Shown piece after piece: positions 9,405 through 19,720 of a stretch of DNA of 21,813 bases. The stretch comes from a virus (Duplodnaviria; Heunggongvirae; Uroviricota; Caudoviricetes), in the IMG/VR virus record IMGVR_UViG_2563366926_000003; one strand, written 5' to 3'. The notes beneath the pieces are model-generated. The model saw only the letters and a program-made list of their open reading frames with translations, was not told the origin of the DNA and did no database searches. The position numbers were made by a program, and so were the translations under genes. Every line of letters begins with the position of its first letter. Within the stretch, counting starts at the first letter, position 1.

Positions 9405-10304
9405 TTATTTGATTATTTCTTTTATAAAGACTTCTTTCGGTTGGTATTTTTTATCTGATGATTTGAGCTGGTACGTTATTGTTATATCAGCACGTACAGC
9501 AAATTTACCTGCAAAATCTGATGGGTTTACGTTGGGGCCAAGAACCATATTTACTCTTCGATCTATTAATCCAGGGATAACAGCAGCCCAACCTTTCTCT
9601 GGATTGTCGAGGTCTAATGCACGGATTTCAACATCAACATCAAAATGATCCTGAGTATATGACTCTGGTGTGAAGACAACTTCAGTTGGGGCTTTTTTAA
9701 TGGTTTCAGCGGGAATGGTCACTGTACCACCCCCTGTACCTATGACCATCGTAGATCCTTCGTCTGCCCTAGCTGGGGCAAGCGTCTTAATGGAACTTTT
9801 GGCAAGAGTCTTCTTATTGGTTACCGTGCTTTCTATGATTGCTTGAAGACGGTCAGGTGAAATATTAGCCTCACCGGCACCAATATTGATGATTGTATTG
9901 TTATTTGCTTCAAAGTGGGAGGTGTTGCTTGGAGCCATAGCCTTAGTTGCTAGAACTAAGCCATATCCAACCAGACCAATAACAACAGCACCAACGAGAG
10001 CGTTTCTCATTTTCCCATTTCCGATCTTTGCATGAGCGCCAGCAAGAAACTTGTCCATTTCTTCTTGGCTACCAAAGAGGAGTTTAATAACAATATCTTC
10101 ATAAAGGCTTCCTGCTTCTAATCGCGCAACATGCACCGATATATCAAGGATATTAGCCCCTGTCAGTTCCTGCAAAACACCTTCTGATTGTTTTGCGATG
10201 GCCTCCCACCCTTGAAGGGAGGTAATCACATCTTTGATGCTTACAGGTTCTTTAGTTGAATAATATATGTTTTCGGTAAAGGTTAAAGATAATTCTTGGG
10301 ACAT
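9405..10304 (-). CDS. Hypothetical membrane-anchored protein (one central TM helix) in the rexAB position of the immunity region; candidate superinfection-exclusion / abortive-infection gene
   Basis: 299-aa ORF with a good RBS (gaggg, 6 nt upstream of the ATG), co-oriented with and 130 bp downstream of cI; central hydrophobic helix ALVGAVVIGLVGYGLVLATKAMA; visibly more AT-rich than the lambda backbone; no family recognised. Confidence 0.7.
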   Translation of the reverse strand: MSQELSLTFTENIYYSTKEPVSIKDVITSLQGWEAIAKQSEGVLQELTGANILDISVHVARLEAGSLYEDIVIKLLFGSQEEMDKFLAGAHAKIGNGKMRNALVGAVVIGLVGYGLVLATKAMAPSNTSHFEANNNTIINIGAGEANISPDRLQAIIESTVTNKKTLAKSSIKTLAPARADEGSTMVIGTGGGTVTIPAETIKKAPTEVVFTPESYTQDHFDVDVEIRALDLDNPEKGWAAVIPGLIDRRVNMVLGPNVNPSDFAGKFAVRADITITYQLKSSDKKYQPKEVFIKEIIK

Positions 10305-13483: not shown

Positions 13484-13722
13484 AGCTAAAATATTAGCTT
13501 TAAAATAAAGTATATCTAGCGAATATAATCCAGGACTGGTTGTAATGCCCGCAATAATTGATTGCGTGACTAATAAAATTTTTCTTCCATTGTAATCATT
13601 TAACCATAAAGTTTATGTGGATATTTTATTTGTGTGTTGATTTTTTTGTAACGTTCTGTATATTTCGCACCTCTTGTCATACCAGTTATTTTTTTCATTA
13701 TATTCATAACGTTGATTGAACT

Positions 13723-16700
13723 ATGACCACTGTGAATAAAAAGTTAAAAAAAACTGCATCTGGCGCGATTACATGGTCAGTAATTGTTACCCAGATATTA
13801 TCTCCAGTTTCTCTTTCTTTGATTCCGGCAAACAGTTTTGCATCGTCTGATAATAAAGATGTTACGCAAATTTATGCTAGCGATGAGCGTGCAAATAAAG
13901 TGGCCTCATTTGCAGTAAGTGCAGGTCAGAGTCTGGCGAATAATAATGCAAGTAGTTTTGCTGTAAATACTTTATCAACTCAGGCGACAAAAGAGGTCGT
14001 CGATTGGTTGCAACAATATGGCAATGCGCGCATCAAGCTTAATGTCGATAATTCTTTTTCCTTGAAGGATTCATCATTCGACTTTTTATATCCATGGCTG
14101 GATACTCAGGATTATGTGCTATTCAGTCAAACATCACTACATCGTACTGATGACCGTAATCAGACCAATATTGGTTTGGGGATTCGTCATTTCACTCCTG
14201 ATAATGCAATGTTGGGTGCGAATGTTTTCTACGATTATGATTTAAGTCGCAGCCACTCTCGCGCAGGTTTTGGGGTTGAGTACTGGAGAGATTATTTCAG
14301 GCTTGGTGTAAATACCTATTTTGGTTTATCTGACTGGAAGGACAGTCGGGATATTGATGATTATCTGGAAAGACCCGCAAATGGCTGGGATTTTTCTGCT
14401 GAAGGATGGCTACCTGCTTATCCGCAATTAGGGGCATCTATTCAGTTTGAAAAATATTATGGTAAAAATGTCGGATTATTTGGAAGCGATAATCTGCAGG
14501 AAAACCCTTACGCAGTTACTGGGGGAATTTCTTATACACCAGTTCCTCTGATTAAGTTTTCTGCACAGCATAAGCAAGGACAGAGCAACGTTCACGATAC
14601 AACCTTTGGTGTTGAGTTTAATTACCGCCCAGGCGTTTCCCTTGCTGAACAGCTTAGCAGTGACAATGTTGCAGTTATGCGAGAAGTCCAGAACCGGCGT
14701 TATGATTTTGTTGAACGAAATAACAACATTGTTCTGGAGTACAAGAAGAAGCATGCACTGAAAATCAGCTTACCAGAGTCTGTTCAGGGGGATGGCGAAT
14801 CAATCATCCCTGTAACACTGACAATCAACAATGCCAGTGGTGGTATCAAGTCTGTACAGTGGAATGATAGTGTATTCACTGCGGCTGGCGGTAAGATCAG
14901 TGGAAATGGCACATCATGGCAGGTCACTTTACCGGCTTATAAAAGCGAAGGTGTAAATTCGTGGAATGTTGGAGCCACGGTCCAGGATAATAGAGGCAAC
15001 GTTTCCAACTATGCGGTGATGAATATTAGCGTTATCAATAGTGGTGTCTCGACAGCGGATTCTTCTTTTATGTTGGATGGAGATTCATCTCCGACGATCT
15101 CTGCTGATGGTCAATCCACTCATCCAATAGTATTAAGCCTGAAAGACAGTAACGGTAAGGCATTAACCGGACTGGCTGATGACATTGAAATGTCAGTGGA
15201 ATTTACTGCGGATAGCAATAGTGCTCGACAGCGTGAAACGGTAACTGCCCCGTCATTAGGCGCGGTAGAGGAAATCTCTGCTGGTGTATATCGCTCTGTT
15301 CTGACTGCTGGTTCGCAGGCTGGCACAGTACGTGTAACAGCAAAAGTTCAGGGAAAAACCTTTACTTTGAATATTAAGCAGGCAGCCGTTATTGATAGTG
15401 ATGTCTCGACAGCGGATTCTTCTTTTACGTTGGATGGTGATTCGTCTCCGACGATCTCTGCTGATGGTCAATCCACTCATCCAATAGTATTAAGCCTGAA
15501 AGACAGTAACGGTAAGGCATTAACCGGACTGGCTGATGACATTGAAATGTCAGTGGAATTTACTGCGGATAGCAATAGTGCTCGACAGCGTGAAACGGTA
15601 ACTGCCCCGTCATTAGGCGCGGTAGAGGAAATCTCTGCTGGTGTATATCGCTCTGTTCTGACTGCTGGTTCGCAGGCTGGTACGGTACGTGTAACTGCAA
15701 AAGTAATGGATAAAACATTTACTCTCAGTATTAAGCAAACAGCAGCAACAGAACCTGATTCTGAGGTCAGTGCTGTTTTAACCGCTGCACCAGCAGAACA
15801 GGTAGTTGGTTACAATATCAATCTACAACTGGCAGTGAAGGATTCACAAGGAAATGCAATCACTGGTGATAACACTCTGAGCTTTTATGCTCTTAACCAG
15901 GCAGAAGGAGTCGAGTTTGGGGCTGTAACGGAAAAAGACGGTGTCTATAGCGCGACAGTAACTTCAAAACGAGCTGGTAAGATTCGGATCGGTGTTAAAT
16001 CGGGTAGTCACAATTTCTCAGGTATTGAGAAAGAAATCTCCTTTATTGAAGATCGAACACAGTTCGCATTCTCTCGTATTGAAGCCAGTAAAAATAATGC
16101 ATTGGCTGACGGCAAACAACAGAATACGGTGACTTTAAGCCTTGCAGATCGTTTCGGCAATGTTGTGCCCGGTTATGCTGTTACGCTGTCCTTACCTGCG
16201 GGGGTAACTCAAGTTGGTGGTGAACATGCTGTGTCAACTGACGAAAACGGTAATGCTGTTTTTGCGTTAATAAGCTCCACTCCGGGTTCTTACGTGATTA
16301 AAGCTCATGCTGGTTCTCAGATGTCTACTGAGTTAACAGTAACCTTTGCATCAAATATGATCGGAGCTTCACTGTCACTGACGCCTGGAAACAGTAGCTT
16401 AATTTCCAATATTCCTGCTAATGGTAAGGATGCTGCGGTATTGAATGTGCAACTGACAAATACGAATGCGTCGGTCAATGGACAGAAGATTCAGCTCATC
16501 ACCTCATCTGAAAGATTGTCTGTACCGACAAATATCGTGACTGATTCAACAGGGCATGTTTCCGTACCACTTACAACGGTGAGAGCTGGTGAGTATACGG
16601 TGGCTGCACGAGTGACTGACGGTTCCCATAGTGTGGAGTCTGGCAGCGTTAAGTTAACTTTTGTACCAGATGCTGCTTCCGCAGAACTTACTATGAGTAC

Positions 16701-17631
16701 ATCAAAACAGCAGATTGTGGCCGATGGTAGTGAAAGTGCAACAGTGGACATTCAGTTGGTTGATGCCAATAACAATGCGTTTACAGGCGATGTGGATTTA
16801 ACGGTTACACCATCGACGGGAGCATCATTGACCAGTAGTAAACTGCAGTTGGATGCTCATGGACAGGCAACAACGCAGTTCACAGCATCGAAATCAGGCC
16901 AGTACACAATTCAGGCTGAGTATGTTCTAGATGGGAAACGTATAACCGCAAGCAAAAATATTGATGCCGTGACGGATGTGAAGGAGGCTGTGTTGGAGAT
17001 CACATCATCTGCATCTTCGGCTGTAGTGAGCGATACCAACAATCTGATATTTACGTTACTGTTGAAAAGTACGTCAGGCGAAGTATTAAGTGGTCGAGTA
17101 TTGAATATCAAGGCATCTGGGCCGTCCAAATATGGTGCGTTGGTGGTTGATAAAACCACTGTAACGACTGATGAGTATGGTCTGGCTACGGTAAGCGTAC
17201 ATGGTCGAACGGCTGGTTCGTATAAATTAACGGCGACCTTAGATGAACTTGGCAGTGATGTTAGTGAGGTGAAGTCATTCTCTCTGTATGCTGATGAGGC
17301 AAATGGAGTATTGACACTGCATAAAGATGGAGGCTATGACACAGATGATGGTACTCCAGTGGGGGTTTATGCCCGATTTGTTGACCATTTCGGCAATCCG
17401 TTATCTGGTACGGTTGAGTTTTCTGCTGGTAGTGAAGATAGTCCAAACTCTCAACGGGTTAAAATGGAGCCTGCTACAGTAACGTTACACTGGACAGGTA
17501 ATGCAGCCTCGGAGTTCAGCACCTATGAAAGCGGTTATCACTGGATTAAGGCCAAAATAACGAACAGCAAAAATACATATGAGAAAACAATAAGGACTTA
17601 TGTTGTAAAGCTCCCTGAAAAGGATAGTTAA
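13723..17631 (+). CDS. Inverse autotransporter adhesin of the intimin/invasin family (signal peptide, outer-membrane beta-barrel, tandem bacterial Ig-like domains)
   Basis: 1302-aa ORF; N-terminal signal-like segment; residues ~100-340 resemble the intimin/invasin beta-barrel translocator (GIRHFTPDN...GFGVEYWRDYFRLGVNTYFG...FGVEFNYRPGV); the C-terminal ~950 aa is a series of repeated ~100-120-aa Ig-like modules including two near-identical copies; preceded by ~240 bp of very AT-rich DNA and followed by a strong terminator. Confidence 0.85.
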   Translation: MTTVNKKLKKTASGAITWSVIVTQILSPVSLSLIPANSFASSDNKDVTQIYASDERANKVASFAVSAGQSLANNNASSFAVNTLSTQATKEVVDWLQQYGNARIKLNVDNSFSLKDSSFDFLYPWLDTQDYVLFSQTSLHRTDDRNQTNIGLGIRHFTPDNAMLGANVFYDYDLSRSHSRAGFGVEYWRDYFRLGVNTYFGLSDWKDSRDIDDYLERPANGWDFSAEGWLPAYPQLGASIQFEKYYGKNVGLFGSDNLQENPYAVTGGISYTPVPLIKFSAQHKQGQSNVHDTTFGVEFNYRPGVSLAEQLSSDNVAVMREVQNRRYDFVERNNNIVLEYKKKHALKISLPESVQGDGESIIPVTLTINNASGGIKSVQWNDSVFTAAGGKISGNGTSWQVTLPAYKSEGVNSWNVGATVQDNRGNVSNYAVMNISVINSGVSTADSSFMLDGDSSPTISADGQSTHPIVLSLKDSNGKALTGLADDIEMSVEFTADSNSARQRETVTAPSLGAVEEISAGVYRSVLTAGSQAGTVRVTAKVQGKTFTLNIKQAAVIDSDVSTADSSFTLDGDSSPTISADGQSTHPIVLSLKDSNGKALTGLADDIEMSVEFTADSNSARQRETVTAPSLGAVEEISAGVYRSVLTAGSQAGTVRVTAKVMDKTFTLSIKQTAATEPDSEVSAVLTAAPAEQVVGYNINLQLAVKDSQGNAITGDNTLSFYALNQAEGVEFGAVTEKDGVYSATVTSKRAGKIRIGVKSGSHNFSGIEKEISFIEDRTQFAFSRIEASKNNALADGKQQNTVTLSLADRFGNVVPGYAVTLSLPAGVTQVGGEHAVSTDENGNAVFALISSTPGSYVIKAHAGSQMSTELTVTFASNMIGASLSLTPGNSSLISNIPANGKDAAVLNVQLTNTNASVNGQKIQLITSSERLSVPTNIVTDSTGHVSVPLTTVRAGEYTVAARVTDGSHSVESGSVKLTFVPDAASAELTMSTSKQQIVADGSESATVDIQLVDANNNAFTGDVDLTVTPSTGASLTSSKLQLDAHGQATTQFTASKSGQYTIQAEYVLDGKRITASKNIDAVTDVKEAVLEITSSASSAVVSDTNNLIFTLLLKSTSGEVLSGRVLNIKASGPSKYGALVVDKTTVTTDEYGLATVSVHGRTAGSYKLTATLDELGSDVSEVKSFSLYADEANGVLTLHKDGGYDTDDGTPVGVYARFVDHFGNPLSGTVEFSAGSEDSPNSQRVKMEPATVTLHWTGNAASEFSTYESGYHWIKAKITNSKNTYEKTIRTYVVKLPEKDS
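15030..15743 (+). repeat. Near-identical 357-bp (119-codon) in-frame tandem duplication inside the adhesin gene
   Basis: The unit starting gtctcgacagcggattcttctttt occurs at 15046 and again at 15403 (period 357 bp); the central ~280 bp differ at only a handful of positions; encodes VSTADSSF.LDGDSSPTISADGQSTHPIVLSLKDSNGKALTGLADDIEMSVEFTADSNSARQRETVTAPSLGAVEEISAGVYRSVLTAGSQAGTVRVTAKV twice. Confidence 0.92.
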
Positions 17632-17643
17632 CAAAACAGAATA

Positions 17644-17670
17644 GGGAGGGCTAAGCCCTCCCACTTTTTA
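17644..17670 (+). terminator. Rho-independent terminator of the adhesin gene
   Basis: Perfect 8-bp GC-rich stem gggagggc / gccctccc with loop taa, followed by acttttta. Confidence 0.8.
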
Positions 17671-18153
17671 ATTGAGACGGACTGTTTCTTAAATTCACTT
17701 ACGTTAGATATGAACTGGTTATTTTTTATAACAATAAAAGACTTTTGATTTTTGAATATCAGTAAGTAATAATGATTTACGTCGACAGACTGAACATCTG
17801 TTGGTGACTTCTGCGCTAAACGGGGACGTTTATGCGCACATACAATCTAAACTCTCTTCTCTCTTCACAGATGCAGAAATGCACCTGCGATTCTTTGCAT
17901 CCAACGTTTGACCTCTGCGGAGGTGAAGCGTGAACCTCCCACAAGATGGCATCAAATTACATCGCGGTAACTTCACCGCTATCGGTCGGCAGATCCAGCC
18001 TTATCTGGAGGACGGCAAATGCTTTCGCATGGTGCTTAAACCGTGGCGCGAGAGACGCAGTCTAGACTGGCCCCCTGAATCTCCAGACAACCAGTATCAC
18101 TTAAATAAGTGATAGTCTTAATACTAGTTTTTAGACTAGTCATTGGAGAACAG

Positions 18154-18519
18154 ATGATTGATGTCTTAGGGCCGGAGAAACGCAGACGGCGTACCACACA
18201 GGAAAAGATCGCAATTGTTCAGCAGAGCTTTGAACCGGGGATGACGGTCTCCCTCGTTGCCCGGCAACATGGTGTAGCAGCCAGCCAGTTATTTCTCTGG
18301 CGTAAGCAATACCAGGAAGGAAGTCTTACTGCTGTCGCCGCCGGAGAACAGGTTGTTCCTGCCTCTGAACTTGCTGCCGCCATGAAGCAGATTAAAGAAC
18401 TCCAGCGCCTGCTCGGCAAGAAAACGATGGAAAATGAACTCCTCAAAGAAGCCGTTGAATATGGACGGGCAAAAAAGTGGATAGCGCACGCGCCCTTATT
18501 GCCCGGGGATGGGGAGTAA
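18154..18519 (+). CDS. insC: IS2 OrfA (InsC) transposase regulatory/DNA-binding subunit
   Basis: 121-aa frame [56 protein letters not shown]... with RBS ggagaa; recognised as IS2 InsC. Confidence 0.93.
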
Positions 18520-19382
18520 GCTTAGTCAGCCGTTGTCTCCGGGTGTCGCGTGCGCAGTTGCACGTCATTCTCAGACGAACCGATGACTGGATGGATGGCC
18601 GCCGCAGTCGTCACACTGATGATACGGATGTGCTTCTCCGTATACACCATGTTATCGGAGAGCTGCCCACGTATGGTTATCGTCGGGTATGGGCGCTGCT
18701 TCGCAGACAGGCAGAACTTGATGGTATGCCTGCGATCAATGCCAAACGTGTTTACCGGATCATGCGCCAGAATGCGCTGTTGCTTGAGCGAAAACCTGCT
18801 GTACCGCCATCGAAACGGGCACATACAGGCAGAGTGGCCGTGAAAGAAAGCAATCAGCGATGGTGCTCTGACGGGTTCGAGTTCTGCTGTGATAACGGAG
18901 AGAGACTGCGTGTCACGTTCGCGCTGGACTGCTGTGATCGTGAGGCACTGCACTGGGCGGTCACTACCGGCGGCTTCAACAGTGAAACAGTACAGGACGT
19001 CATGCTGGGAGCGGTGGAACGCCGCTTCGGCAACGATCTTCCGTCGTCTCCACTGGAGTGGCTGACGGATAATGGTTCATGCTACCGGGCTAATGAAACA
19101 CGCCAGTTCGCCCGGATGTTGGGACTTGAACCGAAGAACACGGCGGTGCGGAGTCCGGAGAGTAACGGAATAGCAGAGAGCTTCGTGAAAACGATAAAGC
19201 GTGACTACATCAGTATCATGCCCAAACCAGACGGGTTAACGGCAGCAAAGAACCTTGCAGAGGCGTTCGAGCATTATAACGAATGGCATCCGCATAGTGC
19301 GCTGGGTTATCGCTCGCCACGGGAATATCTGCGGCAGCGGGCTTGTAATGGGTTAAGTGATAACAGATGTCTGGAAATATAG
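18477..19382 (+). CDS. insD: IS2 OrfB (InsD) transposase catalytic domain (DDE); expressed as an OrfAB fusion by -1 frameshifting
   Basis: 301-aa ORF recognised as IS2 InsD; slippery A6G motif (aaaaaag, 18470-18476) at the orfA/orfB overlap. Confidence 0.93.
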
Positions 19383-19720
19383 GGGCAAATCCACAGTCTT
19401 TCCCAGAATGCACTCAGCCACATGTGGTACAGCGAAATCAGTGAATACCTCATCAGCAGGGGTAAAACGTTCGCCACTCCAGCTTGGGTAAAAGATGCTC
19501 TCAAACACACATATCTCGGTTATGAAACCAAAGACCTGGTTGATGTCGTAACCGGTGATATCACCACTATCCAGTCGTTACGCCATACCTCCGACCTTGA
19601 TACCGGAGAGATGTATGTCTTCCTGTGTAAGGTTGAAGCCTGGGCGATGAATATTGGCTGCCACCTGACTATTCCGCAGAGCTGCGAGTTCCAGCTGCTG
19701 CGTGATAAGCAGGAGGCGTA

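Follow-up and report, generated by a model that had tools for sequence, protein, structure and literature searches.

The viral DNA studied here, IMG/VR record IMGVR_UViG_2563366926_000003 (21,813 nucleotides; the whole of it is called the window), belongs to Escherichia coli. It carries the gene of an inverse autotransporter (type Ve) adhesin, which is 100% identical in many complete E. coli genomes. Inside this gene one immunoglobulin (Ig)-like module stands twice in tandem, with almost the same nucleotide sequence. How did such a pair arise, and what keeps its two units alike? An earlier inspection of the letters, referred to below as the sequence-only reading, had proposed either a very recent in-frame duplication or ongoing unequal recombination, and had warned that short reads could collapse or expand the repeat. 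We put the probability at about 85% that the array is an old two-copy array, in which recurrent intragenic recombination homogenises the core and out-of-register pairing changes the copy number.

The tandem array and the domain that it encodes

The adhesin gene and the parts of its repeat are located in the window as follows.

13723–17631, plus strand: inverse autotransporter (type Ve) adhesin gene, 1302 amino acids (aa); open reading frame (ORF), Pfam and RefSeq annotation
15030–15737: tandem array, period 357, 2.0 copies, 95% matches, no indels; Tandem Repeats Finder
15030–15386, plus strand: repeat unit 1, head1-core-tail1, codons 437–555; repeat searches and direct alignment
15387–15743, plus strand: repeat unit 2, head2-core-tail2, codons 556–674; repeat searches and direct alignment
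15088–15323, plus strand: unit 1 core, 236 bp, perfectly identical to the unit 2 core
15445–15680, plus strand: unit 2 core, 236 bp, perfectly identical to the unit 1 core

In the whole 21.8-kb window, Tandem Repeats Finder identified this 357-bp repeat as the only array, and it found no short tandem repeats there. A second, independent repeat search paired 15030–15329 with 15387–15686 at 97%. When the two units were aligned directly, with 70 upstream bases included, 20 of the 357 bases mismatched; the units are 94.4% identical in DNA and 94.1% identical in protein (119 residues). With the flanking context in the alignment, the similarity ends abruptly upstream of 15030 and 15387. The period is exactly 119 codons, and the array lies in frame within one ORF. 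The repeat searches and the alignment agree on the 357-bp in-frame tandem duplication and confirm the coordinates proposed for it, 15030–15743.

The mismatches are located at unit positions 7, 8, 15, 42, 52 and 58 and then between 295 and 353; six fall in the first 58 bases, fourteen in the last 63 and none from position 59 to position 294. A clean run of 236 bp was never reached in 200,000 permutations of 20 random mismatches (p < 5e-6). As random placement never gave such a run, the clustering of mismatches at the unit edges is real. The units had been described as almost identical over ~280 bp; the near-identity stands, whereas its extent is more exactly 236 bp of identity, or 300 bp at 97%. 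The tail of unit 2 contains one substitution cluster, VMDK in place of VQGK, which among the alleles compared is confined to those of the window type (the window, L007 and L011). The other Ig-like domains of the protein are 25–32% identical to the unit at the protein level, and neither the repeat search nor the alignment detected DNA similarity between them and the unit; as proposed, these other repeats are alike at the protein level only.

One unit alone scores 45.7 bits against the Pfam model Invasin_D3 (cut-off 33), over unit residues 8–110. By sequence it matches an Ig domain of FdeC in the Protein Data Bank (PDB; 4E9L, E=2.9e-7), the unit being ~13 residues longer. The one-unit AlphaFold2 model, for which the nine Ig-like segments of the adhesin itself served as the alignment, predicts an Ig-like sandwich of eight strands, with a predicted local distance difference test score (pLDDT) of 84.3 and a predicted template-modelling score (pTM) of 0.77; a two-unit model made without alignment had a pLDDT of 39 and was discarded. 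The best Foldseek matches of the unit model are the Ig-like domains of InvE, FdeC, InvD, invasin and intimin D00-D0, and the structures closest to it by predicted fold are 5N40, 4E9L, 5LDY, 1CWV and 6TQD. Since Pfam, the FdeC sequence match, the AlphaFold2 model and the Foldseek matches agree, one unit is one complete 119-residue invasin/Big_1-type Ig-like stalk domain. The two units are the second and third extracellular domains of the adhesin, and gain or loss of a unit leaves the reading frame intact. The proposed change in passenger length follows from this, at 119 residues, or one Ig domain, per unit.

Copy number, junctions and age of the array

Intact genes taken from the same prophage position in E. 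coli form a regular copy-number series.

1 unit: 3552 bp, 1183 aa; L003, L011
2 units: 3909 bp, 1302 aa; window, L001, L002, L004
3 units: 4266 bp, 1421 aa; L005, L006, EC958, JJ1886
4 units: 4623 bp, 1540 aa; L010, L012

Each of the four forms occurs in complete genomes and all of them keep one open frame. A large protein collection contains the same series of 1183, 1302, 1421 and 1540 aa, that is, 1183 + 119n. The sequence-only reading had asked whether copy number is invariant across related strains; 1, 2, 3 and 4 units were found in E. coli. The array does not have the form of a phase-variable contingency locus: its period is 357 bp (119 codons), and the frame is kept in all forms.

Sixty of the 562 matching records, picked at even intervals, were searched with a three-copy query. 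Three copies were present in 35 (one disrupted by an insertion sequence, IS), two copies in 13 and one copy in 9 (one IS-disrupted); the last 3 were truncated or partial. By targeted search, one four-copy gene was found in a complete genome, that of AVS0193 (L012, NZ_CP124455.1), where the 4623 bp at L012 3001–7623 translate as one uninterrupted 1540-aa frame. RefSeq/PGAP splits this gene into a partial pseudogene and a second coding sequence, and the extra repeat seems to confuse the annotation pipeline. One irregular form, P0003 (1423 aa, E. coli UMEA 3489-1), carries a duplication of part of the preceding domain (GNGTSWQITLPAYKSEG...) together with one unit. The duplication joins mid-unit, off the unit boundary; it reflects either illegitimate recombination or an error in the assembly of the scaffold.

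The order of the unit edges is constant. As compiled in a table of 43 variable sites across all units of the compared alleles, head1 is found in the opening unit of each allele and head2 in every unit after it; tail2 is found in the closing unit and tail1 in every unit before it. With head and tail abbreviated to h and t, the four structures are as follows.

One copy: h1-core-t2
Two copies: h1-t1 / h2-t2
Three copies: h1-t1 / h2-t1 / h2-t2
Four copies: h1-t1 / h2-t1 / h2-t1 / h2-t2

These junctions match the reciprocal products that out-of-register pairing and exchange within the core would give. Alleles that differ in copy number can be almost the same elsewhere. Between L002 (two copies) and L003 (one copy), 0/1307 and 1/1888 positions of the gene and 1/4000 positions of the downstream flank are mismatched; L005 (three copies) shows 0–1 mismatches outside the repeat with L010 and L012 (four copies), and the window shows 0 with L007 (one copy, draft assembly). 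The single unit of L003 has its head from L002 unit 1 and its tail from L002 unit 2. Because the two-copy alleles have junction signatures common to distant alleles, the direction read from this site pattern is that of a 2-to-1 deletion, and the L002/L003 event was probably not a fresh duplication. With alleles of 1–4 units, reciprocal junctions and near-identical flanks, ongoing unequal recombination is borne out at the population-genomic level.

To date the duplication, three two-copy lineages were compared, which are about 4% apart in the 5′ part of the gene and 8% apart in the 3′ part.

Core, unit positions 29–294 (266 bp): 3, 1 and 0 sites differ between units 1 and 2 within the alleles, and 8–15 between alleles
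Tail, unit positions 331–357 (27 bp): 6, 5 and 5 sites differ between units 1 and 2 within the alleles, and 0–1 between alleles

Core variants are allele-specific, yet they are common to all units of an allele. Since the tail signatures are position-specific and common to all three lineages, the duplication appears to be old and to predate the split of the alleles. The tails act as old orthologous sequence and the cores as sequence that was repeatedly homogenised within alleles, the pattern that concerted evolution would leave. L005 and L006, both with three copies, have 5 differences, all of which lie in the 1071-bp repeat region and 0 in the other 3195 bp; such a distribution agrees with an exchange, between units, of variants that were already present.

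A single very recent duplication in the window lineage, with copies identical at birth and no recombination, would also give two units of 94.4% overall identity with a 236-bp perfect stretch. It would not give mismatches so far from uniform (0/200,000 permutations), and the two-unit structure with its tail1/tail2 signature is also found in alleles that are 4–8% different elsewhere. Nor does it explain core variants that are specific to an allele but common to all its units. Furthermore, the pair in the window, with 20 differences between its units, is the most diverged among the alleles compared, the others having 9–10. This origin is very unlikely, and the very recent in-frame duplication of the sequence-only reading is not upheld.

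Under the old, homogenised array that we favor, gene conversion or unequal crossing-over would recur and so hold the central 236–300 bp of the units free of differences within an allele. The outer 30–60 bp of each unit would escape homogenisation, bordering as they do non-homologous sequence on one side, and the edges would keep their position-specific differences. Conversion and crossover need two-sided homology, and in tandem arrays in general the sequence at the border of homology is therefore rarely homogenised. The long identical core would let two units pair out of register, and resolution of the mispaired units would add or remove exactly one in-frame domain, with 1-, 2-, 3- and 4-unit alleles as the result. 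RecA-dependent recombination in E. coli needs roughly 25–30 bp of homology, and the perfect repeat of 236–300 bp is far longer. The enzymology may be that of RecA-dependent sister-chromatid exchange, of replication slippage, or of the prophage Exo/Bet during lytic growth.

The core encodes the body of the predicted folded Ig domain, and strong purifying selection on this domain could likewise hold it constant, in which case the copy variants would stem from rare unrelated events. However, selection at the protein level spares synonymous differences, yet the core units have none, and the same core differs at 8–15 sites between alleles. The junctions of the 1-, 3- and 4-copy alleles are also exactly as homologous exchange between units predicts. 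We regard purifying selection as an extremely improbable explanation.

Could the second copy in the window be a product of assembly? The identical core exceeds the typical short-read length, and assemblers do mishandle the repeat. A one-genome-per-species scan found no homologue outside E. coli; its sole match was the orphan contig L013 (CAXORL010000232.1, 1–357), which is exactly one 357-bp period long and belongs to an assembly labelled Moraxella osloensis. L013 starts in tail1 and continues with head2 and then the core of an allele of the type found in sequence type 131 (ST131). An assembler would be expected to emit an orphan contig of this kind from a loop in its de Bruijn graph, and L013 also indicates E. 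coli contamination of the Moraxella osloensis assembly. The assembly hazard was thus rightly foreseen. For the window itself, an assembler that expanded a genomic single copy would not create 20 unit differences with junction-specific signatures. Furthermore, the window gene recurs at 99% identity or more in 53 complete-genome records, and of the 40 records listed, 39 show a two-copy span. Since dozens of complete genomes repeat the two-copy state and the units differ at 20 positions, this state is not an artefact, and we give expansion by the assembler practically no weight.

Several observations weigh against a recombining array of the kind that we propose. Among the window-type complete-genome records listed, 39/40 have two copies; the exception is TUM14771, with a slightly different allele in a prophage with another immunity region, and only one one-copy window-type complete genome was found among the records listed. 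All ST131 records listed, serial and clonal isolates included, have three copies. Because copy number is almost invariant within clones, turnover is slow; across the population the locus is polymorphic, but it does not work as a switch. The one-copy calls L007–L009 come from short-read draft assemblies, and in drafts the window allele is found on 158 contigs in its one-copy form (P0042) and on 476 in its two-copy form (P0011). As the one-copy window allele is common in drafts and single among the complete genomes found, some of the draft one-copy calls may be collapsed repeats rather than true deletions. The signal in the head (unit positions 1–28) is mixed and not cleanly position-specific. 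In sequence, the products of sister-chromatid exchange, of slippage and of Red annealing during lytic replication would look the same.

The adhesin and its prophage

Two further features define the adhesin gene.

13927–14724, plus strand: β-barrel translocation domain, aa 69–334; Pfam PF11924
17644–17662, no strand assigned: G+C-rich hairpin with T-runs on both strands, 13 bases past the stop codon; 8-bp stem with 7 G-C pairs

The barrel scores 336.9 bits against Pfam IAT_beta (cut-off 22.3) at aa 69–334. In the passenger, Pfam identified Big_1 (180.6 bits, 5 stretches) and Invasin_D3 (179.6 bits, 6 stretches), and nine Ig-like segments of the adhesin align with one another; the boundaries of the Ig domains other than the repeated unit are approximate. 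In PDB sequence searches, aa 97–341 match the barrels of invasin (4E1T, E=9.7e-74) and intimin (4E1S, E=1e-63), residues 342–442 match intimin D00, and residues 792–1039 match invasin D1-D3. The adhesin thus has the make-up of an inverse autotransporter, a barrel plus a C-terminal Big_1/invasin-type Ig-like passenger. From homology, the passenger is predicted to be exported through the barrel and displayed at the surface. In the 100%-identical E. coli records, RefSeq labels the product 'inverse autotransporter beta domain-containing protein'.

Against the NCBIfam models, the adhesin stays far below the curated cut-off of every named family that was scored (scores over cut-offs: intimin 334.8/1400; IatC N-term 396.6/2400; SinH 319.8/999; YchO/YchP 271.5/508). 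With Pfam, neither a LysM nor a C-type lectin domain was detected in the adhesin, and no distinct tip domain was identified.

Two candidates were rejected during the comparison of records. Matches of 66% coverage had suggested a divergent N-terminal module, and direct comparison gave 96% identity there; the 66% coverage arises because BLAST pieces get joined across a three-copy array. Extra 'places' per genome had suggested paralogues. A one-copy query returned a single place in window-type genomes, and the extra places are therefore off-register matches of the repeat.

In NZ_AP022159.1, the gene lies in a complete-looking lambdoid prophage, which is integrated beside ybhC and encodes Exo, Bet and Gam; the adhesin gene is flanked there by replication gene P and the nin genes ybcN/ninE. 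The adhesin gene is present in 561 of 5426 complete E. coli genomes, about 10%, and both EC958 and JJ1886, reference ST131 strains, carry its three-copy allele. Against 50,697 deposited phage genomes, the gene gave no megablast match (roughly at least 85% identity).

The G+C content of the adhesin gene is below that of the flanking phage genes. The upstream gap, 13484–13722, is AT-rich (240 bp, G+C about 0.35) and contains promoter-like hexamers. The hairpin at 17644–17662 is likely to be a terminator that closes the adhesin gene, a consensus match that is not significant as a class; around the gene, promoter and terminator counts show no excess over shuffled expectation. With its lower G+C content, the AT-rich gap upstream and the hairpin just past its stop codon, the adhesin gene resembles a phage cargo gene that is complete in itself.

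The same adhesin allele stands in a differing prophage in L011 (NZ_CP128875.1), which shows 5 mismatches outside the repeat and has another immunity/replication-initiation region; upstream of gene P, this region encodes a YdaT toxin domain, a Ser/Thr kinase and a PP2C phosphatase. For this reason, the block of adhesin gene, P and nin genes moves as a module between lambdoid prophages.

Other parts of the window were inspected as well. An IS2 copy at 18064–19393 (transposase ORFs 18109–18519 and 18477–19382) lies inside the nin-region gene ybcN; in the prophage of NZ_AP022159.1 ybcN is intact, and there is one mismatch to the first 18,063 bases of the window. A 299-aa ORF at 9405–10304 (minus strand) has the cI-like S24 repressor on one side and the N antiterminator on the other, a position which we take to correspond to that of rexAB in lambda. 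It had no NCBIfam or PADLOC match and a weak, sub-threshold match to Pfam DUF1206, and it is a candidate for a still uncharacterised gene of exclusion or defence. The unknown ORFs beside the adhesin gene had no match in PADLOC or Pfam.

In some complete genomes the adhesin gene is cut by IS3-family elements (H83 and H29/H125; NZ_OZ039398.1, NZ_CP123346.1 and NZ_CP123321.1). The element is ISEc52 in a three-copy allele and another IS3-family element in an apparent one-copy allele. These insertions suggest that the adhesin is dispensable in the strains concerned.

Whether the changes in length are of any use to the bacterium is a separate matter. The five-domain rod of invasin measures roughly 18 nm, and judged from this rod each unit would add about 4 nm of stalk; such length may matter for adhesion or immune recognition. 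Recombination could equally be real but neutral, with copy number drifting and the array a by-product of repeat instability rather than a means of length tuning. Copy number is nearly fixed in clones and differs between lineages, as drift and clonal expansion would give; the IS disruption in some records (H83; H125, H29) suggests weak selection, and no phenotype is known for the adhesin. Two points speak on the other side and neither is decisive: most alleles are intact in frame at every copy number, and near-identical tandem folded domains are generally disfavoured unless length variation is useful (the Periscope argument, PMC8201768). Neutrality is a serious possibility, somewhat short of even odds.

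Combined with the recombining array, one further idea would give the phage an active part: at each replication of the prophage its Exo/Bet would re-set the stalk length of an unnamed further family of E. coli adhesins, a length that would be lineage-specific in pandemic clones (three units in the ST131 type, two in the window type). We consider it unlikely. If true, a temperate phage would tune the projection of an adhesin, with consequences for colonisation, immune recognition or phage-receptor masking.

Comparison with known systems

Periscope Proteins, which include SasG/Aap, Rib, Sgo_0707, Esp and CdrA (Whelan et al. 2021, PMC8201768), have stalks of long, highly identical tandem domain repeats; the number of repeats varies, and intragenic recombination was proposed as the cause. 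The operational screen of that study asks for repeats of >50 residues at ≥80% identity (PMC8201768). Like Periscope Proteins, the adhesin passes the screen, its units being 119 residues long at 94% identity, and its repeat number differs between close homologues, from 1 to 4, with near-identical flanks. Different from them, its array has 1–4 units, compared with up to 14 or 40+, and of its roughly nine Ig-like stalk domains a single one is repeated. The adhesin has an N-terminal outer-membrane barrel as its anchor instead of LPXTG, and its gene is prophage cargo. By the sequence screen and copy number, the adhesin would be classed as a Periscope-type repeat protein.

For inverse autotransporters, near-identical Ig domains and the resulting risk of misassembly have been described (Goh et al. 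2019, PMC6714894). Variable or near-identical Ig repeats are known from the Yersinia ruckeri invasin-like molecule, and the passengers of E. coli IatB and IatC are of variable length (PMC6714894). Variable tandem-repeat number in IatC or IatD is not evidenced in that work (PMC6714894); in the adhesin, by contrast, copy variation is documented unit by unit.

The census in PMC6714894 tracks six genes, fdeC, yeeJ and iatA-D, and its strain table lists EC958 and JJ1886 with fdeC, iatA and iatB only. The adhesin gene is outside these six genes, though both strains carry its three-copy allele. Since they carry the gene and the census omits it, the gene is missing from the named repertoire. It appears to be unnamed; in the literature searched on inverse autotransporters, Iat genes and ST131/EC958, neither a name nor a functional study of the adhesin was found.

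The solved structures closest to the unit are the stalk domains of FdeC (EaeH), invasin, intimin, InvD and InvE, and the barrels closest to that of the adhesin are those of invasin and intimin. Lineage-specific stalks with 1–4 copies of one domain matter for typing of the gene, for antigen use and for short-read assemblies, in which it may be collapsed or emitted as a separate loop. The findings are useful for annotation and typing of the adhesin gene. They reveal no new mechanism; the case is of an ordinary, well-documented type and will not surprise a specialist. As a compact case of concerted evolution, the locus combines reciprocal products of unequal crossover with an edge effect, and it is suited to measurement of recombination between 357-bp repeats within a prophage.

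Tandem arrays generally undergo concerted evolution and have divergent edge copies. Like them, the adhesin has paralogous units that are more alike than orthologous ones, and its borders of homology escape homogenisation. Different from them, the edge effect in the adhesin is found inside a two-unit array, over tens of bases.

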